The notes beneath the pieces were generated by a model. It saw nothing but the letters and a program-made list of their open reading frames with translations, was not told the origin of the DNA and made no database searches. From contig CAWGVG010000015.1 of NCBI GenBank assembly GCA_963825865.1, positions 64,001-128,000 on the forward strand: a stretch of DNA of 64,000 nt, read 5' to 3'. How positions within the stretch are numbered: position 1 is the first letter of the stretch; every line of letters starts with the position of its first letter. A program made the position numbers and the translations under genes. Below are positions 23,688-64,000 of the stretch, piece by piece. This DNA is from an uncultured Nitrososphaeraceae archaeon (lineage in GTDB: Archaea > Thermoproteota > Nitrososphaeria > Nitrososphaerales > Nitrososphaeraceae).

Positions 23688-25890
23688 ATGCCCAAGTTCA
23701 AGTCGACCCAAGATATTTTAAGAATTATTGGTAATAAAGAGCAGATCCGTAATTTTGGCGTCATTGCTCATGTTGATCATGGCAAGACAACTATGAGTGA
23801 TAGTCTTTTAGCTGCATCAGGTATTATTTCGCCTTCAGTTGCAGGTCAGGCCCTTGCACTTGATTCTATGAAGCTTGAACAAAACAGACAAATGACTATT
23901 CGTGGAGCTAATGTTACACTATTTTATGAAAATGAAGGCAAGGAATATGTGATTAATATGATCGACACTCCTGGCCATATCGACTTTACAGGAAGAGTTA
24001 CTCGCGCTCTTAGAGCAATTGATGGTGTAGTCGTTGTTTCTGATTCTGTTGAGGGTATTATGACCCAGACAGAGACTGTAACAAGACAAGCACTCGAAGA
24101 ACGAGTTAGACCGGTTCTATACATTAACAAAATTGATAGGCTGGTAAAAGAACTAAGATTAGATCCACAAGCCATGCAAAAATGGCTTTCAAATATAATT
24201 GCTGAATTTAATCGACTTATTGATATTTATGCTGAACCAGAACTTAAAGAAAAATGGAAAGTTAGTATACAGGGAAATAGTGTTGCATTTGGTTCTGCTA
24301 AGGATAGATGGGGATTTAATTTCAAAGTCGCTCAGAAAAAGGGCGTTAGTTTTAAGGATGTTTATGACGCTTATACTTCAGAAGAGCCTGGTGCTATAAA
24401 ATCACTTGAAGAAAGAGCGCCATTGCACGAGGCCATCCTAGGAATGGTTGTACAACATCACCCTCCACCCCATATCGCTCAGAGATACAGGATCCCCAAA
24501 ATTTGGCCAGGAGACTTGGAATCTGATCTTGGAAAATCGCTTTTAGCCTGTAACGAAAAAGGGCCAGCGGTGATGATGGTTACTACAATTAACGTTGATC
24601 CACAGGCGGGCAGAGTTGCAACTGGCAGGCTTTTCTCTGGTACTATCAAAGATGGTGATGAAGTATACTTAATTGATGCAAAAAGACCAGGAAAGGTTCA
24701 GTCTGTAAATATTTACATGGGCAACACTAGAGAAGTAGTGAGCATGTTACCCACAGGTAATATTCCTGCATTGCTTGGTCTTGATTACGCTGTAGCAGGT
24801 GAAACAATTTCAACTGTAAAAAATATTCCAGCATTTGAATCGATCAAGTATGTTTCAGAGCCTGTAGTTACAATTGCTGTGGAGCCTAAGCATCCAAAAG
24901 ATCTACCTAAACTTGTTGAAGCATTACGCAGAATTACTGTTGAAGATCCAAACCTTATAGTAAAGATTAACGAGGAAACAGGTGAGACTTTAATGGCAGG
25001 AATGGGTGTATTGCACCTTGAGATTGCAACATCACTTTTGCAGGAAGCAGGTCTTGATATTACGACAAGTCAACCCTTAATCAACTATAGAGAAACTATT
25101 CGTACAAAAGCAGGCCCGATCATGAGTAAATCACCGAATAAACATAACAAAATATTTATGCGTGTAGATTTACTTGGCGAAGAAATAATTGGAATGATAA
25201 AAATGGGCCAAATCAAAGAGGATATGGATAAAAAGGAATTGGCAAAGATCCTTCGTGAAAAAGGCTGGAATGCAGATGAAGCAAGAAATGTTGCTGCCAA
25301 TAGATGTTGGCGGCAATATGTTAATTGATGAAACAAAAGGTGTGCAATTTATACAAGAATCAATGGATTCTATAAAGTCAGGCTTTGATGATGTAGTCCA
25401 TTCAGGTCCTCTTGCTCATGAACCTGTAAGAGGTGTTAAGTTTGTCTTACATCACTTTGTTCCACATGAGGATCCAGCTCATAGGGGGTTAGCACAATTA
25501 ATGCCTGCAACTCGAAGATCTATGTTAGGTTCAATGCTGATCGCAGATTCAGTTTTACTTGAACCTATACTTGGCATCGAGATTAAATGTCCACAGGAAC
25601 AAATTGGTACTGTCGCTGGTATACTATCAAGTAAAAGAGGTAAGTTACTCAACGTAGAACAAAAAGGTTTAATTTCGATCATCCAAGGTGAAGTACCGGC
25701 ATCTGAGACATTTGATCTTTCCGAGGTCATGCGTGGGGGAACTGCTGGTAAAGCTATGTGGAATACTTATTTCAAAACATGGCAACCTCTTCCACAATCA
25801 ATATTTAGGAATTTAGTTGGAGAAATAAGAAAGAGAAAAGGTCTAAATCCAGAGCCACCAACTCATGATGAGTTTATCGACAAAGAATAA
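23688..25890 (+). CDS. fusA: Translation elongation factor aEF-2 (one indel near 25310)
   Basis: IAHVDHGKTT, DTPGH, NKID, SPNKHNK, diphthamide motif HEDPAHRG. Confidence 0.97.
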
Positions 25891-56048: not shown

Positions 56049-56120
56049 ACGCTATGATCTCACTTTTTCTATGGCAATCACTGTACATTTAAAAGAGGTT
56101 ATTCCAATTTCACTTTAATT

Positions 56121-56214
56121 GGGGCTATCGTCTAGCTTGGTCTAGGATACCATCTCTTATAGAGGTACAGGCCTGGGGCGCTGGCGGTCGTGGGTTCAAA
56201 TCCCACTGGCCCCA
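56121..56214 (+). tRNA. tRNA-Pro(GGG) with 18-nt intron (56153..56170) at position 29/30
   Basis: Acceptor stem GGGGCTA/TGGCCCC, T-arm GTGGG-TTCAAAT-CCCAC; intron removal gives CCAGC-CTGGGGC-GCTGG. Confidence 0.93.
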
Positions 56215-56273
56215 ATGTGATATTAGTTCTCTAATTGGATTCACTCGAACAGAAAAAAAGTGAAATTAAATAG

Positions 56274-57543
56274 ATGCAAATTGAACAAGGAGAAGGAGAA
56301 CAACAAGAACCAATTGAGGAGGAATCCAATGCATATTCGCTATTTGTATATGCCGTGAGATCACAAATTACAAGGGATTATTATCTGAGACGGTTACGAA
56401 TTTTCTTTAATGATATTAATTTACTTCCTGATGGAGCAATGGAAGAAAGGTGTAATCTGTTTGCTGCAAAGGGATAAAAGATCCAAATTGGGCTTTTCAT
56501 TGCATTGTAAAATTCTTGCAGTTTCAAAGGGAAAGAGTTGAAAAAGAAGAGATTACAGGAGCAACTCTCCGTAACTTTGTAAAAGCTATAAAATTATTCT
56601 GTGAAATGTCTGATATTCCAGTTACATGGAAAAAGATCAGTCGTGGATTACCTAAAATTAGAAGATATGCTGATGATCGCTCACCAACCATACAAGAAAT
56701 TCAGAAAATTTGTGAATATCCTGATAGGAGAATAAAAGGAATAGTGTACACTATGTCATCTACTGGAATCAGGCTTGGCGCATGGGATTACTTACGCTGG
56801 AGACATATAGTGCCAATCAAAAGAGAAGGAAAAATTGTAGCCGCAAAGGTAGTTGTTTATGCTGGAGATGATGAAGAGTATTTTTCATTCATAACTCCTG
56901 AAGCATATTGTGAATTGGAAAAATGGATAGAATATCGTCAGGAATCCGGGGAAAAGGTAGATGTCAATAGCTGGGTAATGAGGCAATTATGGAATACTAA
57001 ACAAGGCCACTACCATCATGGAACAATAAAGGATGCTACTAAACTCAAATCTTCGGGGGTCAAAAGATTAATCGAAGATGCATTATGGACACAAGGAATT
57101 AGAAAGAAATCAAATCTAAAAAGAAACAGATATGAGTTTCAAACAGATCATGGGTTAAGAAAATGGTTTAAAACTCGTTGCGAAATAGCTGGAATGAAAA
57201 GCATAAATATAGAAAAATTGATGGGTCATTCAGTAGGTATATCCGATTCTTACTATAGAGCTACAGAGAATGAACTTTTAGATGATTATTTGAAAGCAGT
57301 TCCTCTACTTACAATAAGCAGCGAGAACAGGCTTCATATACAGATGAAAGAAGTGGTCGAACAATCAAGAAATAACGATGCCAGCATCAAATCTGAATTA
57401 TACGAAAAAGGACAAGCGATTGCTAATTTGACAGAAAGAGACTCATTAACACTGACGCAATAGCTTCTCTATCAGATCAGGTAATGAAACTTATCAAGGA
57501 GATCGAGGTCTTAAAGAGGAACAGAACTAGTGATACAACTTAA
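56274..57543 (+). CDS. Tyrosine recombinase/integrase (indels near 56470 and 57445)
   Basis: STGIRLG (R), HGLRKWF (HxxR), LMGHS (H), DSYY (Y); coiled-coil tail. Confidence 0.9.
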
Positions 57544-57569: not shown

Positions 57570-57929
57570 TTATCTGTTCAAAGCCGTCCTAACTTCAGGG
57601 AGAGCCAAAGCAAATCCGACATGAATACAATCAAAAGTATCTTCAGAAATACATTTTAAGTTCCTATTTCTTACCTGAACTTCTATCAGTCTTTCATTCT
57701 TTCTCATATCTTTTAATATAACTGTGTCATCATTGAGGCCAACCAACGAGATAAACTGTGCTTCTCTAAGCATTCTACGTCGCTCAAGTTCTATTAGTGC
57801 CGATTCTGAAACGAATGCCAAAAGATAAGTTTGGATGCTTTGCTTTTTCAATGTTATACTTACGTTCTAGTTCTGAGAGCGATTTACCACTTACTGTAAT
57901 AGTCTTTTGTCCTGGTTTTGGCACTACAT
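57570..57929 (-). CDS. RHH-like DNA-binding protein with C-x7-C-x-H tail
   Basis: Merging the two copies gives MSVPKPGQKTITVS...SFAAFVSESALIEL...LKCISEDTFDCIHVGFALALPEV. Confidence 0.65.
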
Positions 57930-58628
57930 GATATGACCTTCTGATATTAATAAATATAACAGCTAATCCAAGTGCGTAACGGTTATTAGCCGTGCCATAG
58001 ATAAAAATATGTGAGCAGAGGCTACAAGACGGTCAGAGCAGAAAGAAGATAGATTGGAAAAAACAAGTGATGCCTGCAGTAAAAGAAAGGTGCAAGCTTC
58101 AATTCACGTGGAATAATACCTACACTGAGGGCAATGTTTTATGCACTTGTTTCTCGCGGAGTGATACCTAATGATCATCATTGAGGCCAACCAACGAGAT
58201 AAACTGTGCTTCTCTAAGCATTCTACGTCGCTCAAGTTCTATTAGTGCCGATTCTGAAACGAATGCTGCAAAAGATAAGTTTGGATGCTTTGCTTTTTCA
58301 ATGTTATACTTACGTTCTAGTTCTGAGAGCGATTTACCACTTACTGTAATAGTCTTTTGTCCTGGTTTTGGCACTGACATGATATGACCTTCTGATATTA
58401 ATAAATATAACAGCTAATCCAAGTGCGTAACGGTTATTAGCCGTGCCATAGATAAAAATATGTGCAGCAGAGGCTACAAGACGGTCAGAGCAGAAAGAAG
58501 ATAGATTGGAAAAAACAAGTGATGCCTGCAGTAAAAGAAAGGCTGCAAGACTTCAATTCACGTGGAATAATACCTACACTGAGGGCAATGTTTTATGCAC
58601 TTGTTTCTCGCGGAGTGATACCTAATGA
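57727..58628. repeat. Direct tandem duplication of about 450 bp (57727..58174 and 58175..58628)
   Basis: Both copies run TCATCATTGAGGCC...GTGATACCTAATGA and differ only by 6 nt of small deletions in copy 1. Confidence 0.95.
58381..58461. promoter_or_regulatory. Divergent promoter/operator between the RHH-like gene and the Toprim gene
   Basis: AT-rich TATA-like tract; TAACgGTTA palindrome (58428..58436) framed by GCTAAT/ATTAGC. Confidence 0.4.
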
Positions 58629-59427
58629 TCAAAAGAAATATCAATACCTGAGCGAGTTTACGGCTAGAGCGAGAGAGAATGGAGAACTACCAATAAATTG
58701 TTTTGCAGACCAAAGCAGAAGAGTAGTACAAGATTTTAACGATATCTATCAATCTCCTGAAAAGTACGTAGATAGAGCTATACAATACTTACAAGATGCA
58801 CCAAATGATTATCTTAACACTATACCTAGATGGCATGAACAACCAGAGTATGTAGAAGTCTGGGTGGAAAAAGACGCTCTCGCAGGCACTTTAAAATCCA
58901 TACTTGGAGATAGACAAATTAGGATTGTGCCTAATAGAGGATTTAGTAGTGTAGCGTTTAGTCACGATAATATTAAAAGGCTAAAGGATTTTCAATACCA
59001 AGGGAAAAGTATTCACATTCTTTACTTTGGTGATTTGGATCCATCTGGGGAAGTCATAGATGAGGTTATTTATAAGAAATTAAGACAATATGGAATATAC
59101 GGAGTTGATTTTAAACGTATAGCAGTAACAGAAGAACAAACAAGGCAGTTCAATTTGCCACATAACCCTGATCCGGAGACCTTGAGCAAGCTAAAAAAGG
59201 ACAGCAGAGCAAAATCCTTCATGAGGAGACATAATGGTGAGCTTTTTCAAATCGAAGTTGATGCGTTACAGGCATATGGCCCTGATGAATTTAAAAGTCT
59301 AGTACAACAGTCTGTGGACAAATACTTTGACCAAGATATTTACAAGGAAGCACTGTCTAATCCGCTACATTCTGAAGAAGGTGAAGTCGCTTTTAAAGAA
59401 TTTAAAATAGAATATGCTTGTCTTTAG
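58462..59427 (+). CDS. Stand-alone Topo VI-A/Spo11-like (Mini-A-type) protein
   Basis: TLRAMFY wHTH motif, VEVWVEKDAL (Toprim E), RGFSS, YFGDLDPSG (DxD), EVDAL. Confidence 0.75.
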   Translation: MQQRLQDGQSRKKIDWKKQVMPAVKERLQDFNSRGIIPTLRAMFYALVSRGVIPNDQKKYQYLSEFTARARENGELPINCFADQSRRVVQDFNDIYQSPEKYVDRAIQYLQDAPNDYLNTIPRWHEQPEYVEVWVEKDALAGTLKSILGDRQIRIVPNRGFSSVAFSHDNIKRLKDFQYQGKSIHILYFGDLDPSGEVIDEVIYKKLRQYGIYGVDFKRIAVTEEQTRQFNLPHNPDPETLSKLKKDSRAKSFMRRHNGELFQIEVDALQAYGPDEFKSLVQQSVDKYFDQDIYKEALSNPLHSEEGEVAFKEFKIEYACL

Positions 59428-59579: not shown

Positions 59580-59753
59580 ATGGAAAATAATACCAACAAT
59601 AAAGAAGTCACCAAAACCTGGGTTAGTGGACAAAATTCTTGCACACTTGTTATCCCTCGATCGGTGGCCAAGGAATACGGCTTAGACTCGCCTTCGCACG
59701 TAGTAGTAGAGAGGATTCCACAAGGGATCCTGATCAGAAAGCTGGAAGTCTAG
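59580..59753 (+). CDS. AbrB/MazE/SpoVT-family DNA-binding protein, 57 aa (not in ORF track)
   Basis: MENNTNNKEVTKTWVSGQNSCTLVIPRSVAKEYGLDSPSHVVVERIPQGILIRKLEV*. Confidence 0.8.
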   Translation: MENNTNNKEVTKTWVSGQNSCTLVIPRSVAKEYGLDSPSHVVVERIPQGILIRKLEV

Positions 59754-59782: not shown

Positions 59783-62700
59783 ATGATATCTGATAATTTA
59801 CTATCCCACGATGATAATAAAGTTATCCCACATCTAATATTGACCGAGTATCACAGAATGGGTTTTAAGCTAGTACCTCTCGGAGAGGACTCTAAAACCC
59901 CGACCATCAGCTCTACTAATGACATTTACAACGATCCTAATTATTGGACAGAAGAAAAGCTGATCAAAGAGTATTCTAGATTTTCAAATATTGCTACTAC
60001 ATTTGGCATAACTTACACTTCAGAAGGCGAAGCAAACGAGAATAAAAAAGTGTACCTCCACTGCCTGGATATTGATAGTGATAATGTTCTAGCTATTTTA
60101 TTTGACTTCTTAGAGGAGCTGAAATCCAAAACATTTGTAACTAAAACTAAGAAGGATTGCGGTTACCATATTTACTGGTTAAGTCACTCGCAACATACAT
60201 CAATTGGAGCTCGCAGATGCAAACTTGGTTATGAGTTTGAAATCAAGAGTGATAATTCGCTTGGACTTTGTACATTGCCACCCAGCATACACAGGGACGA
60301 TCCTACATTTAGGTATAGAAGTATAGGACTGGATTGTAAAATAACTATTGATGATGGGTTATACCACAAACTGGTAGGTATGCTTTATGATAGGTGTCTC
60401 AAGTCCCAGAACGCCAATGTGATAAAAGATAATCAAAAAGGATTCTAATTTAGCAGGTGTAGATAAAATAACAAAAAGTGAGACTCTTTCTACCGCTACT
60501 TTTAGATCCCTAGATGAACATGCTATAGAACAAGCGGCAGATGCACTTAGGATCAGTTATCAAAGAGGTCATAGAAATTCTATAATTTTTGGTCTTGGTG
60601 GATTATTATTCAAGTCCAGTGTTTCTCTACAAAGTGCACATGATCTGGTTGCCAGGCTATGTGATCATACTAAAGATGAAGAAAAGAGTAGCAGACTGGA
60701 AGTTTTAAACAGCACATACATGAAGGGTTTAAACGGCGATGACGTTAAAGGCACTGCTCAGCTTCTCGATATATTTACTACATTAAATGGAGGAGATAAA
60801 AATTCTGCAAGACAGTTTTTGAAAGATATCTGTCAGGTTCTAGGTGTGAACGGAAGCATTAGCAATAATGATGAATCTAGTGCACCAACGCCTACTACAA
60901 CTCAAACTCTGATACAACTAGCCAAAGAAAACACCTTATTATTTTTCAAAGATCAATTTGATATCACCTATGCCAAAGTTAAGGTACATCAACATTCTGA
61001 GGTAATAGCACTTGCCAGTTCCAAATTCGAATATCTACTAAGTAAACTCTATTTTGAACATACAAGAGGTGAGGTGGCAGGTCAAGAATCATTAAACAAT
61101 GCTATACGTGTGCTAATTTCACAGACTTTGTTTGACAGTCCAACAGTAACCTTAAACCTAAGGGTTGCATGGGGATGTGAACTGCAAAGTAAAGATTGGG
61201 AAATTTATTACGATCTAGCAGACCCTCTGTGGAGTTGTATTAAGATAACTCAGCAAGATTGGGAAATCATACAAGACCCTCCAGTATTATTTATCCGGTT
61301 TAATCAAAAAGCGCAGATTGAACCTGAGAGAAACTATCCTATTGACATATTTGATAAGTATCTTGATTTAATGCACATAAACAACCCAGACCACAGACTG
61401 TTAATCAAAGTCTGGACTATTGCAGCATTTATTCCAGATATCCCACATCCAATAAGTATTCCATACGGTGAAAAGGGAAGTGTAAAGACCACATACTGCA
61501 AATTCCAAAAAAGGTTAATCGATCCTGACAAAATAGAGCTTCTTACTGTTCCTCAAGAGAAAAGCGAATTTGTGCAACAGCAATATCACAACTACCTTAC
61601 TGTCTACGATAATATCAAAACCGTTCCATATTGGTTTTCTGACGAAGTTTGCAAAGCAATAACGGGAATTGGAAGTAGCAAGAGAAGACTTTACACTGAT
61701 GACGATGATGTGATCTACAGTTACAAACGCCTTCTCATAATAAATGGCATCAATAATAGTCTAACTGAGCCTGATGCCTTAGATCGCAGTATCCTCAAAG
61801 AGTTCGAACGAATAACTGACGATCAGAGAAAGGAAGAGTCCAAGGTAGAGGCTGAATTTGAAGAAATGAAGCCAAAACTTTTAGGATATATATTTGACGT
61901 TTTAGTAAAATCCCTACGAATCAAGCCTAGATAGAATTACGTAACTTGCCCAGGATGGCCGATTTTGCAGTTTGGGGAGAAGCCATTGCAAGGGCCATAG
62001 GCTATAAGCCAATGGAGTTTATTGAGGCATACTATCGAAATATAGGTAGGCAAAATGTAGAAGCAATAGAATCAAATCCGTTAGCTCAGACATTAGATAA
62101 GTTTGTAGATAGCTGGTACAAAGAAGGACAGGAAGCTTGCTGGCAAAGTCCTACTTCTAAGGTTTTAGAAAAGCTAAACAAGACAGCCCAGGCGTATGGT
62201 ATAGACACAAGCAGTAAATTATGGCCTAAAGCCGCCAATTCCTTAACAAAGAGGCTAAGGCCTATACTATCAAACCTAAGGGAGGGTCTAGGAATCCATG
62301 TTGTCATCAGCAGAAACTCTACTGGCAAAAACAAAAACACTTCAACCATAAGAATACTGAAAAAACCTCCACTACCTCCACCATCTCCACCAGACCAAAA
62401 CAAGCACAAAATTATAATGAAAATGGTGGAGGTATATTGAGTAGTGGACATACATACCTCCACTCAACAGCATATATCTCCACTAGAAGATATCCAAAAT
62501 CGTGCTCAAAACACAGAAAGTGGAGATAGTGGACATAGTGGAGGTATTATTCCTACCTTAGAGGAGCAGAACCATCTAGACATCGCTGTCAACGATATTC
62601 TGAAAAAGTATGTTGCATTTGACCTCGAATGGACAACATCTTCAGAAGAATCTGCTTCCACAGGATTTGCAACCACATACTCAATAGGAACAAAGATCAC

Positions 62701-64000
62701 AGCAGCTGCTTTTGTAGACAATGAAGGGAAAAGCAAAGTCCTACACGTATCAGACTATTCTAATTCCGACAATCCTGAACATGAACTCTTAGTAGATGTT
62801 AATAAAGAGCTGTTAAAGTATGACTATTCACTTGGATGGTATTCTACTGGTGTTGCTATTTATCATGAAGACACTCAAGAGTACCTTGATGGTGTTGACT
62901 CGGATCTTGCTTATTGCATAACAGGTGTTTAGCAAATGGTGTTGATTCTGTAATTGATTTTAATAGCGCAGGTATTCCATACATAAGGGGTCAAAAACAC
63001 ATTGACCTGCATTCTGTATTTGGCAAACCAATGGTACAGACTACAATCTTTAAGAATGCTTACAGAACCCTCAAACTTGAGGAAGTATCCAAAGCTGTAT
63101 TAGGAGACGGTAGTGTTGAAACAGGTGAAGGAAAATACAAAGGGCTAACAGGTAAAGACATTCATACTCTTTCAGTTGAAGAACAAAGGAAGTATGTTCT
63201 AAGAGATGCAGAGCTAGTAATACAACTTTCAAAGCATAACAATGGTGAAGTCCTTGATGCTATGAAATCTATCTCGGAAATAACTGGACTGGATTTTGAA
63301 AGAGTCTGTGGAACTGGCATATCTACATGGTGGGGAGCTATTTTTGATAATATGATGTCTAATGGAGAACACGAATCACCAGCCTTATCATTAACAAAAA
63401 GAAACAAGAACTAACAGATCTAGAGTATAGAGGTGGAATAGTCCTTCAACCAAAGAGGGGACTTTACCATAATCTCATTGTTGTTGATGTTGCGAGTTTG
63501 TACCCTTCAATGGCAATACTTCACAATATATCATTTGACACAATTAACTGTGAATGTTGTAAAGATAGTAATCTTGACTTGAAGACAAACAAAGACATTA
63601 CAAAAGATTGTAGAATAGAAAAAGAATAGAATGGATATGTAAATTAAAAGAAGGTGCGTTTCCAAAGAAATTAAAAGTATTCAAAGAAGAGAGACTACAA
63701 CAAAAGAGACTAGGAAATCAAGTAAAGCAACTAGCTTTAAAAATTCTAATTAATGGCGGGTATGGAGTCTTTGGAAGTCAATATTTCAAGTATTATGATC
63801 CAAGAGTAGCAGAACTAATCACAGCTTATGGTAGACATACACTTTCAAAAATGCAATCAATTGCCAAAGACATAGGCTTTGAAATAGTATATGGAGATAC
63901 TGATTCCCTTATTCCTTCGCTATAACAATAATAATGCAGTATTTATCTCTGAAGGCATGAAAAAATCGTTTCAAGAGTTCAAGAAGAATGTAGCAAACAA
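59783..64000 (+). CDS. Putative single fusion replicase: Prim-Pol AEP + PriCT + SF3-like helicase + proofreading exonuclease + family B DNA polymerase (split by indels; runs off window end)
   Basis: AEP LDIDS, GYHIY, LPPSIH; PriCT GHRNSIIFGL; Walker A GEKGSVKT, YDN, INGIN, DALDR; exonuclease FDLEW and YVLRDA; PolB YRGG, DVASLYPS, KILINGGYG, YGDTDS. Confidence 0.75.
62365..62545. repeat. Mirror-symmetric array of ten 9-bp repeats (iteron-like; candidate origin)
   Basis: A(C/T)(C/G)TCCAC(T/C) forward at 62365, 62374, 62383, 62456, 62476; reverse at 62425, 62443, 62519, 62528, 62537. Confidence 0.85.

Follow-up and report, generated by a model that had tools for sequence, protein, structure and literature searches.

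The last few kilobases of the window, by which we mean the whole 64,000-nucleotide stretch of DNA analysed here (contig CAWGVG010000015.1, C15:64001-128000), hold a series of open reading frames (ORFs) for a replicase of a putative integrated genetic element. The assembly under study, G000, amounts to 4.98 Mb in 62 contigs and is 81.8% complete; its host is a soil-type ammonia-oxidising archaeon of the Nitrososphaeraceae. In what follows, C-numbers denote contigs of this assembly, L-numbers loci from relatives and P-numbers proteins. Read against intact relatives, the pieces from 59783 to about 64650 form one gene, the predicted product of which is a single primase-helicase-exonuclease-PolB polypeptide, PolB being a family-B DNA polymerase; the gene extends about 650 nt beyond the window end. 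Its parts are the following.

59783-60445, plus strand: module 1, an archaeo-eukaryotic primase (AEP) of the Prim-Pol type (Pfam PF09250), 76% identical to residues 1-219 of the relative P0009, with the motif DID at 60068-60076 and also PPSIH
60516-60842, plus strand: module 2, a six-helix domain after the AEP, seen in an AlphaFold2 (AF2) model of 60426-61931
60930-61931, plus strand: module 3, a D5-like superfamily 3 (SF3) helicase core, assigned with Foldseek, with Walker A GEKGSVKT at 61467-61490, YDN, NGIN and DR
61931-62350, plus strand: module 4, a helical C-terminal domain of the helicase, five helices in about 140 residues, AF2 confidence score (pLDDT) 84.5
62353-62560, plus strand: the helicase-exonuclease linker, with about 10 copies of the iteron ATMTCCACY on both strands, and containing the TGA at 62438-62440
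62561-63411, plus strand: module 5, a 3'-5' exonuclease with ExoI FDLEW at 62618-62632, DSDL, and ExoIII YVLRD
63420-64000 and on to about 64650, plus strand: module 6, the PolB polymerase (Pfam PF00136), with motif A DVASLYPS at 63486-63509, motif B KILINGGYG at 63740-63766 and motif C YGDTDS at 63890-63907
about 63549-63650, within module 6: a CxCC...C cluster, located in alignment A1 (below)

On the plus strand this region is divided among stop-to-stop frames at 59783-60445, 60426-61931 and 61931-62437, the last of them closed by the TGA at 62438-62440, and then at 62441-62929, 62899-63411, 63363-63626 and 63614-63922. When the region was searched by tblastn with 57 proteins, residues 1-1576 of P0009 (1601 aa) matched 59783-64582 in eight pieces that change frames. 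A frameshift-aware protein-to-DNA aligner, run with the three intact guides P0009, P0007 and P0011, placed all 1601 residues of P0009 collinearly on the locus, with 1178 of them identical (74%), at the cost of 13 frame events (nine insertions and four deletions) and with no in-frame stop. The P0007 guide gave 14 events and the P0011 guide 13, mostly at the same or nearby places. Nine of the 13 events found with P0009 fall within the window and four beyond it.

about 60443: +1, in the TT directly after the A5 run
61930: -1, before IELRNLPRMADF
62403 (-1) and about 62455 (+1; 62446-62455 across guides): jointly bypass the TGA at 62438
62913: -1, in DSDLA.LHNRC
about 63391: +2 or -1
63627: +2
63908: +1
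about 63951: +2
64184, 64245, 64438 and 64593: the four events past the window end

A preliminary description of this DNA, made from its letters alone, had proposed that the fragments join through small indels into one frame, and the collinearity over the full length of P0009 bears this out. Each of its junctions has a counterpart in the alignment, namely the loss of one nucleotide before IELRNLPRMADF, the indels in the linker on either side of the TGA, the 1-nt break in DSDLA.LHNRC and the further indels in PolB. Its extra A in the A5 run appears among our events as the +1 in the adjoining TT, and both placements fit.

Intact versions of the gene are found in relatives. A six-frame search with the helicase piece over 151 genomes of the family returned matches in 62 of them (a count that takes in G000 itself and the unpublished G034, the latter with one weak match). 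One match, in the Nitrososphaeraceae archaeon metagenome-assembled genome (MAG) G136, from the same GTDB family as the host, lies within an open frame of 1719 codons; the corresponding ORF of 1709 aa matches Prim-Pol (E 1.5e-15, 58.4 bits) and DNA_pol_B (E 7.8e-38) in Pfam. This ORF retrieved 56 proteins from a collection of 5.8 billion, of which 23, in JGI, ENA, NCBI and Logan records, are collinear with it at E = 0 and 1467-1707 aa long. Where these full-length matches have a name at all it is only 'DNA polymerase ...', and two NCBI names are those of Nitrososphaera or Nitrososphaeraceae MAGs. Single proteins with the whole architecture, which the preliminary description had suggested looking for among relatives, are present as intact ORFs of 1467-1709 aa, and these keep the order it had proposed, Prim-Pol, helicase, ExoI-III and PolB.

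Alignment of 22 full-length homologues (A1) gave a mean column identity of 56% and 229 invariant columns, which include the AEP DxD, the P-loop (Walker A), ExoI-III and motifs A, B and C. The N-terminal AEP part occurs in several unlike versions across the homologues while the remainder is conserved; to judge by these sequences, the primase module has evidently been exchanged. Seven further proteins among the 56 (1270-1427 aa, 37-40% identity, about 70% coverage) constitute a second subfamily with helicase, linker and PolB and no recognised AEP. In a collection of species-representative genomes, among the best 80 of 590 loci, a match across both helicase and PolB was found at six, all in Nitrososphaeraceae, Nitrososphaera or Nitrosocosmicus MAGs, and the helicase core alone was matched in many bacterial and archaeal MAGs.

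These homologues bear directly on the notion that the locus contains two genes, in which the TGA at 62438 would close a primase-helicase, an exonuclease-PolB gene of its own would follow, and the iteron array would be an ordinary intergenic origin between the two. The TGA is in frame with the ORFs on both of its sides, iteron arrays are usually non-coding (and lie mostly after the helicase stop in two of the unfused relatives described below), and related short PolBs of 650-750 aa that begin at ExoI also stand alone. Yet the linker is open in all 22 homologues of A1 and in the G136 ORF, contrary to the case, foreseen in the preliminary description, in which homologues would always be split in two. 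The linker of the paralogue on C21 likewise has no stop, and all three guides leave the TGA frame, by -1 at 62403 and +1 at 62446-62455, along a conserved GGG..ST.Q..SP path. A pair of separate genes is thus very improbable.

A different question is whether the breaks exist in the cell. If the indels were real mutations in a decaying integrated element, the window copy would be a dead pseudogene, and this view can draw on the load of about 13 indels in 4.9 kb (about 2.7 per kb), of which several lie away from homopolymers and three involve 2 nt, and on the recombinase gene upstream, which is likewise in two frames. Over 63450-63772, a contig from a soil sequencing run with about 98% identity is free of the 2-nt insertion at 63630 and is open in frame there, whereas the window copy is not. 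The genome moreover contains a worse copy, the C21 paralogue, which has 76% nucleotide identity to the window copy and 25-32 frameshifts plus stops, as well as truncated remnants at C3:201037-202596 and on C12, C52 and C57. Some of these genome copies are likely dead, and the window copy may have decayed too. A third copy extending from helicase to PolB lies at C7:23769-27591; the genome has been colonised repeatedly by this replicase family.

Essential host genes of the same assembly, however, contain 10 indels in about 5.3 kb at local rates of 0.45-5.4 per kb, a range within which the replicase falls, and insertions predominate in both. The EF-2 gene (window 23688-25890) appears as two ORFs owing to a single 1-nt insertion at 25299 relative to a 91%-identical intact relative, there are 7 indels over 1.3 kb in the EF-1alpha gene (C27:116500-120000) and 2 in the gene for an aIF5B-like GTPase (C26:142500-147000); class-I aminoacyl-tRNA synthetase genes are also split. 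The window copy, free of in-frame stops once its frame is followed, retains 227 of the 229 residues invariant in A1; of the two that are lost, one coincides with the 63627 indel and the second is a Leu-to-Ile change. Also in favour of assembly errors are the soil contig that is open at 63630 and a 450-bp tandem repeat upstream (described below), whose copies differ by indels alone. Because essential genes are broken at a similar rate and the invariant residues are kept, we conclude that most or all of the breaks are probably errors of a noisy assembly and that in the cell this copy is probably unbroken. A pseudogene is accordingly unlikely. Apparent pseudogenes in this assembly, where essential genes carry up to about 5 indels per kb, should not be taken at face value.

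Turning to the individual modules, Pfam assigned no family to seven of the 10 frame fragments, and the Prim-Pol fragment at 59783-60445 passed its cut-off (PF09250, E 1.7e-6, 29 bits against 22.8). D95/D97 and H169 do not vary among the 22 aligned sequences, H128 hardly varies, and all are kept in the window copy. The region that follows had been labelled PriCT-like, a label that no PriCT profile in Pfam confirms; the AF2 model shows a six-helix domain there (model residues 31-139, pLDDT mostly 81-92). The same model, built for the 502-aa frame 60426-61931 from a 16-row alignment (pLDDT 81.1), continues from this helical domain into an alpha/beta ATPase. Foldseek matched it to the African swine fever virus PrimPol, monkeypox virus E5, vaccinia D5, the NrS-1 C-terminal region and the SaPI5 primase-helicase at E 2e-8 to 8e-7 and probability 1.00, with template modelling (TM) scores of only 0.34-0.57. 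Because of these matches we assign the central module to the D5-like SF3 helicases as a model-based prediction. The residues G561, E562, K567, T569, D608, N656 and R667, invariant in A1 and kept in the window copy, would by their pattern fill Walker A and B, the motif C Asn and the Arg finger in SF3 order, and a helicase/primase of Microbacterium phage Zeta1847 was matched by tblastn at E 2e-19. The earlier label of an SF3-like NTPase therefore stands by fold, and finds no support in Pfam or in sequence searches of the PDB.

Module 4, although confidently modelled, matched no PDB fold at E <= 0.001. Winged-helix proteins are among the weak top matches, and a winged-helix identity was considered and set aside at this threshold. 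Our guess is that this domain is a candidate for origin binding.

The exonuclease module aligns to the exonuclease region of Sso PolB1, and its residues D948/E950, D1026/D1028 and Y1125/D1129, invariant in A1, are kept in the window copy. The same is true of D1221 in PolB motif A, K1304 in motif B and D1356/D1358 in motif C, so that the invariant residues of all three modules are in place and the catalytic motifs are intact, as they had appeared to be at first reading. DNA_pol_B is matched at E 6.6e-15 on 63363-63626 and at E 3.6e-12 on 63614-63922. The best match of the polymerase is Sso PolB1 (1s5j), at E 4.2e-39 with a single sequence and 3.4e-67 with a profile; euryarchaeal B3-type enzymes reach about 1e-34 and E. 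coli Pol II 1e-19. The alignment to 1s5j begins only at chain residue 218-317, and in the NCBIfam PRK05761 PolB1 profiles the match starts at position 228-408 and scores 198-217 bits, where the equivalog cut-offs are 780-1289. The absence of the usual N-terminal domain, remarked on in the preliminary description, is evident from both comparisons, and we would describe the module as a B1-like PolB that lacks it, a placement made by best matches. Between motifs A and B all 22 members carry an invariant CxCC...C cluster (P0009 positions 1242, 1244, 1245 and 1270), which may be a metal-binding insertion.

Short PolBs of this type are found in other fusions as well. In the representative library, P0131 (1651 aa) and P0158 (1665 aa) have an MCM helicase fused to a short PolB of the same type, with the domains MCM_OB or MCM (P-loop), MCM_lid and DNA_pol_B, and P0117 (1530 aa) has another P-loop region joined to PolB.

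The most unusual part of the gene is the linker, a low-complexity segment of about 80 residues. Its iterons are arranged in the order >>> << >> <<<, where three copies spaced 9 nt apart point forward and are followed by a reverse pair, a forward pair and a reverse triplet, with one AAAWTCRYGCTCAAAA-like box in each half (two in total). This order is common to the window, C21, G136, G008 and L037, and the iterons are translated in different frames, as SPP, IST, GGD and SGG. The strict form ATMTCCACY has seven matches in the window against 1.71 expected, a number reached by one of 100 shuffles; clusters of a looser core are more telling. The core [AC]TCCAC occurs genome-wide at 0.68 per kb, and clusters of at least eight cores per 350 nt number nine in 4.98 Mb. 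Seven of the nine have a mixed forward/reverse architecture, and of these, two are the replicase linkers on C15 and C21 and five are solitary and non-coding. A search of the linker against its own genome also gave short matches to two of its places from several other contigs, non-coding and rich in ATMTCCACY.

The solitary units lie at C15:134075-134377 (window coordinates 70075-70377, outside the window), C15:144669-144946, C21:44277-44581, C53:27392-27691 and C55:29183-29381, the last of them truncated. They are about 290 bp long, have imperfect 27-bp terminal inverted repeats and contain iterons identical to those of the linker; four of them have common sharp ends and mostly unrelated flanks. 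As single-stranded DNA the C53 unit folds at -39.5 kcal/mol (z -5.49, 0 of 200 shuffles), and the G136 linker folds at -26.6 kcal/mol (z -2.29, 3 of 200 shuffles), a modest value.

The iteron varies by lineage, with forward and reverse copies changing together. In L036, CTTCAC replaces CTCCAC in all eight copies on both strands, turning SPP into SSP and GGD into GED, and the second subfamily has an ATATCGCCTG variant at the same place. Third codon positions are also better conserved in the iteron columns than elsewhere: with columns defined by a third sequence rather than by the compared pair, identity was 0.57-0.93 within them and 0.33-0.65 over the remainder of the gene, the iteron columns being higher in all 12 comparisons, which are among kin and not independent.

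Comparable arrays accompany relatives in which the primase-helicase is unfused. Each such gene has its own repeats, on both strands, at its 3' end; in L040, L016 and L051 they fall within the ORF, and in L046 and L112 most of the array follows the stop codon. In L040 (4747-4930/4931-5153, from a Nitrososphaeraceae MAG) the array of an unfused 966-aa primase-helicase is translated, forming the link between the helicase and a Cys- and His-rich tail of about 75 residues. The use of a putative origin as a linker is thus not confined to PolB fusions but appears to extend beyond them.

Three traits by which iteron origins are recognised are found here, namely lineage-specific repeats, constraint at third positions and the same arrays in non-coding DNA. 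The linker array is probably a replicon-specific cis site, a putative origin or origin-operator. It could instead be that the gene is fused and the 'iterons' are just a low-complexity linker rich in Pro and Gly, the solitary units being leftovers of decayed replicases that have no role in cis. Pro (CCN) and Gly (GGN) codons are complementary, and part of the inverted-repeat look may be a by-product of this. Maximum 7-mer counts are little above those of shuffles, mononucleotide shuffles reaching similar values in some linkers, which makes this measure weak by itself. The unit at C15:134075-134377 is followed after 140 nt by a 150-nt remnant of the small ORF that normally lies downstream of the replicase, and P0036 (1005 aa), a natural deletion form that has lost PolB, joins the linker to the last 30 or so PolB residues. 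A linker selected as protein alone is nevertheless hard to reconcile with one motif read in several frames, with the third positions, with the joint change of forward and reverse copies in L036 and in the second subfamily, with the shared sharp ends of four solitary units in mostly unrelated flanks, or with arrays in non-coding DNA after unfused helicase genes. We consider it doubtful.

If the array is an origin, the fused protein would bind iterons within its own gene, assemble there as a hexameric helicase and melt the hairpin-capable region; the AEP domain would then prime, and the tethered PolB would extend and proofread. PolB would have been joined behind the origin of a module like that of the plasmid pRN1, and therefore the iteron array would now be translated as an inter-domain linker. 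These ideas can be drawn together, tentatively and at somewhat less than even odds for the whole, in a scheme of four parts. The linker would be the translated replication origin, PolB having been joined to a pRN1-like primase-helicase by read-through; the iterons would from then on have been under a double constraint, as sites in the DNA and as a flexible tether; the solitary 290-bp units would be origin-only satellites, either non-autonomous replicons or akin to miniature inverted-repeat transposable elements, served by the replicase in trans; and, with the short PolB also joined to MCM, fusion of helicase and polymerase would be a recurrent route to independence from the host replisome.

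Taken together, our analysis favours a single replicase of about 1600 codons, belonging to a small integrative element of Nitrososphaeraceae, with breaks that are mostly assembly errors and a linker that is an origin-like array, a reading to which we give a probability of roughly 0.78. Several points weigh against it. The central region matched no Pfam family at E <= 10, and phmmer and profile searches against the PDB found nothing there beyond generic P-loops; module 4, as noted, matched no PDB fold. The C21 paralogue and the truncated remnants make real decay of some copies in this genome likely, and the kinship among third-position comparisons, the modest folding of the G136 linker, the 7-mer counts and the complementarity of Pro and Gly codons temper the case for the array. 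Accurate reads of this organism were not found: among sequencing runs the best contains 10% of the sampled words and none holds this strain, and four runs aligned to the locus gave scattered contigs only, with 63627-63631 the sole junction bridged, so that we infer the intactness of the window copy.

The replicase lies in a compact neighbourhood with the following features.

56120-56215, plus strand: tRNA-Ile (anticodon TAT), 96 nt, predicted by ARAGORN (L033 3121-3216, base 1 of L033 being window 53000)
56274-57463, plus strand: tyrosine recombinase (integrase), in two frames, 56274-56477 and 56516-57463
57727-58631, strand not applicable: tandem duplication of about 450 bp, in 100%-identical blocks with a spacing that drifts from 448 to 454
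58462-59427, plus strand: 321-aa ORF with an EK...GDLDPSG pattern and a sub-cut-off match to Pfam Toprim (E 0.0068, 17 bits)
59580-59753, plus strand: 57-aa AbrB/MazE-like small DNA-binding protein, with a sub-cut-off match to Pfam MazE_antitoxin (E 0.0021)
64653-64970, past the window end: ORF of about 106 aa directly after the replicase, also seen at L018 8463-8819

The tRNA-Ile, directly upstream of the recombinase gene, is the likely integration target, and the recombinase would integrate and mobilise the element. Its Pfam match to Phage_integrase (E 1.6e-4, 21.9 bits) is under the cut-off of 27.1, and in L020 a homologue with 55% identity precedes a subfamily-2 replicase. In the stretch of contig searched, exact and short-BLAST comparison turned up only chance 10-12-mers as a downstream att repeat of the 3' part of the tRNA-Ile, which the noisy assembly may hide, and the right border of the element was not found. 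For the proposal of an element mobilised by a tyrosine integrase, the recombinase gene and the tRNA beside it speak in favour, and such mobilisation may be regarded as a prediction. No Cas1 turned up in general scans of the ORFs from 56274 to 64970, none of which was aimed at Cas1.

The 450-bp copies share 445 matched bases with no substitution and 4-6 small indels, and they double both a small minus-strand ORF (57570-57851 and 58168-58380) and the 5' end of the 321-aa ORF; the duplication arose either in the assembly or very recently. The 321-aa ORF, which has no match among PDB sequences, may be a small Topo VI-A/Spo11-like Toprim protein of mobile elements. The 57-aa ORF was found by tblastn upstream of the replicase in seven of 18 loci searched (L016, L018, L019, L035, L036, L037 and L042), which makes six distinct places, L018 and L035 being the same contig. 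The downstream ORF (106-118 aa) is conserved in L018/L035, L019, L021, L022, L034 and L036; it has no Pfam family, and in the Atlas it falls in unnamed viral clusters, with a weak lead to the Phi29 single-stranded DNA-binding protein (17% share, 0.90). Beyond about 65000, on the opposite strand, are genes for surface proteins with NHL/PKD repeats.

Among known systems the nearest precedent is viral. Proteins that combine an SF3 helicase, an AEP primase and PolB in one polypeptide have been described from Lactococcus and Rhodococcus phages as HelPrim-PolB (Kazlauskas et al. 2016), a group later named HelPrimPolB and described as a divergent member of the epsilon-N-like clade (Kazlauskas et al. 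2020), with a deviant motif C and KxY in both accounts. The suggestion that such an architecture might be unreported is overtaken by gp55 of Lactococcus phage 1706, a helicase-primase-PolB fusion already in print (Kazlauskas et al. 2016). Like the archaeal family, gp55 is an 'all-in-one' replicase. It differs in order, with a DUF5906 P-loop at residues 181-292 and PolB at the C-terminus, giving helicase, primase, PolB in place of primase, helicase, PolB, and it comes from a tailed phage rather than a small integrative element. The archaeal proteins, in contrast to HelPrimPolB, have YGDTDS and KKHY and are closest to archaeal PolB1 rather than epsilon-like. BLASTP of gp55 against P0009 gave 25% identity over 213 palm residues (E 2e-5) and no other significant piece, in a non-collinear arrangement. 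Because gp55 is not collinear and these palm residues are its sole significant match, the archaeal family is, on this comparison, best described as an independent fusion that shares neither the domain order of HelPrimPolB nor close kinship with gp55.

In the literature searched we found no thaumarchaeal fusion of Prim-Pol, SF3 and PolB and no origin in such a linker, supplements excepted (such proteins may be listed in the annotation file of Krupovic et al. 2019 or in Tables S5/S6 of Kazlauskas et al. 2020). Thaumarchaeal integrated elements have been described with primpol-S3H fusions and with separate PolB genes, and the part of that account available to us does not mention a triple fusion (Krupovic et al. 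2019). Casposons combine Cas1 with a protein-primed or family-2 PolB, and pipolins have a primer-independent PolB (Krupovic et al. 2019). Like the present element, both are integrated and carry their own family-B polymerase; here we find instead a tyrosine recombinase, an AEP primase and a B1-like PolB with canonical motif C. Relative to archaeal PolB1, represented by Sso Dpo1/PolB1 (1s5j), the module has ExoI-III and motifs A, B and C in full, and it differs in lacking the N-terminal domain, in having the CxCC...C cluster and in its fusion to a primase-helicase.

The closest plasmid parallel is pRN1, whose minimal replicon comprises orf56, which encodes a repressor, orf904, which encodes a prim-pol/SF3 helicase, and a stem-loop in the 166 bp that follow orf904 (Berkner et al. 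2014). The published layout resembles ours in its small DNA-binding gene, its Prim-Pol and SF3 protein and its origin-like stem-loop on the 3' side of the helicase. It has no fused PolB, and whereas its origin is one 100-nt stem-loop, here there are inverted iterons in an origin-like array that is translated as a linker. Unlike pRN1, moreover, our element lies beside a tRNA gene and has a recombinase.

The lambda origin encodes an inter-domain linker. According to a review, the O gene contains ori-lambda; there, as is proposed for the archaeal case, the coding sequence of an initiator includes the iterons to which that initiator binds. The O protein itself is unrelated and recruits the helicase and polymerase of the host, in contrast to a replicase in which all of these would be within one protein.

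Our findings fit into a broader view of how small replicons are built. Small plasmids and integrated elements normally carry an initiator or a primase-helicase only and borrow the polymerase of the host, whereas in this element of less than about 10 kb one protein carries predicted priming, unwinding, synthesis and proofreading. The idea of an all-in-one fusion has been published for phages, and what differs here is the archaeal domain order and the B1-like PolB. Such an enzyme might serve for DNA amplification that needs no primers and includes proofreading. The origin within the linker is the most interesting part of the finding and the most readily tested. If the linker is indeed an origin, it would offer a clean case of selection acting at the DNA and the protein level on the same bases. 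To our knowledge there are no genetic tools for soil ammonia oxidisers, and a minimal vector replicon for Nitrososphaera would then consist of three genes and one intragenic cis site.

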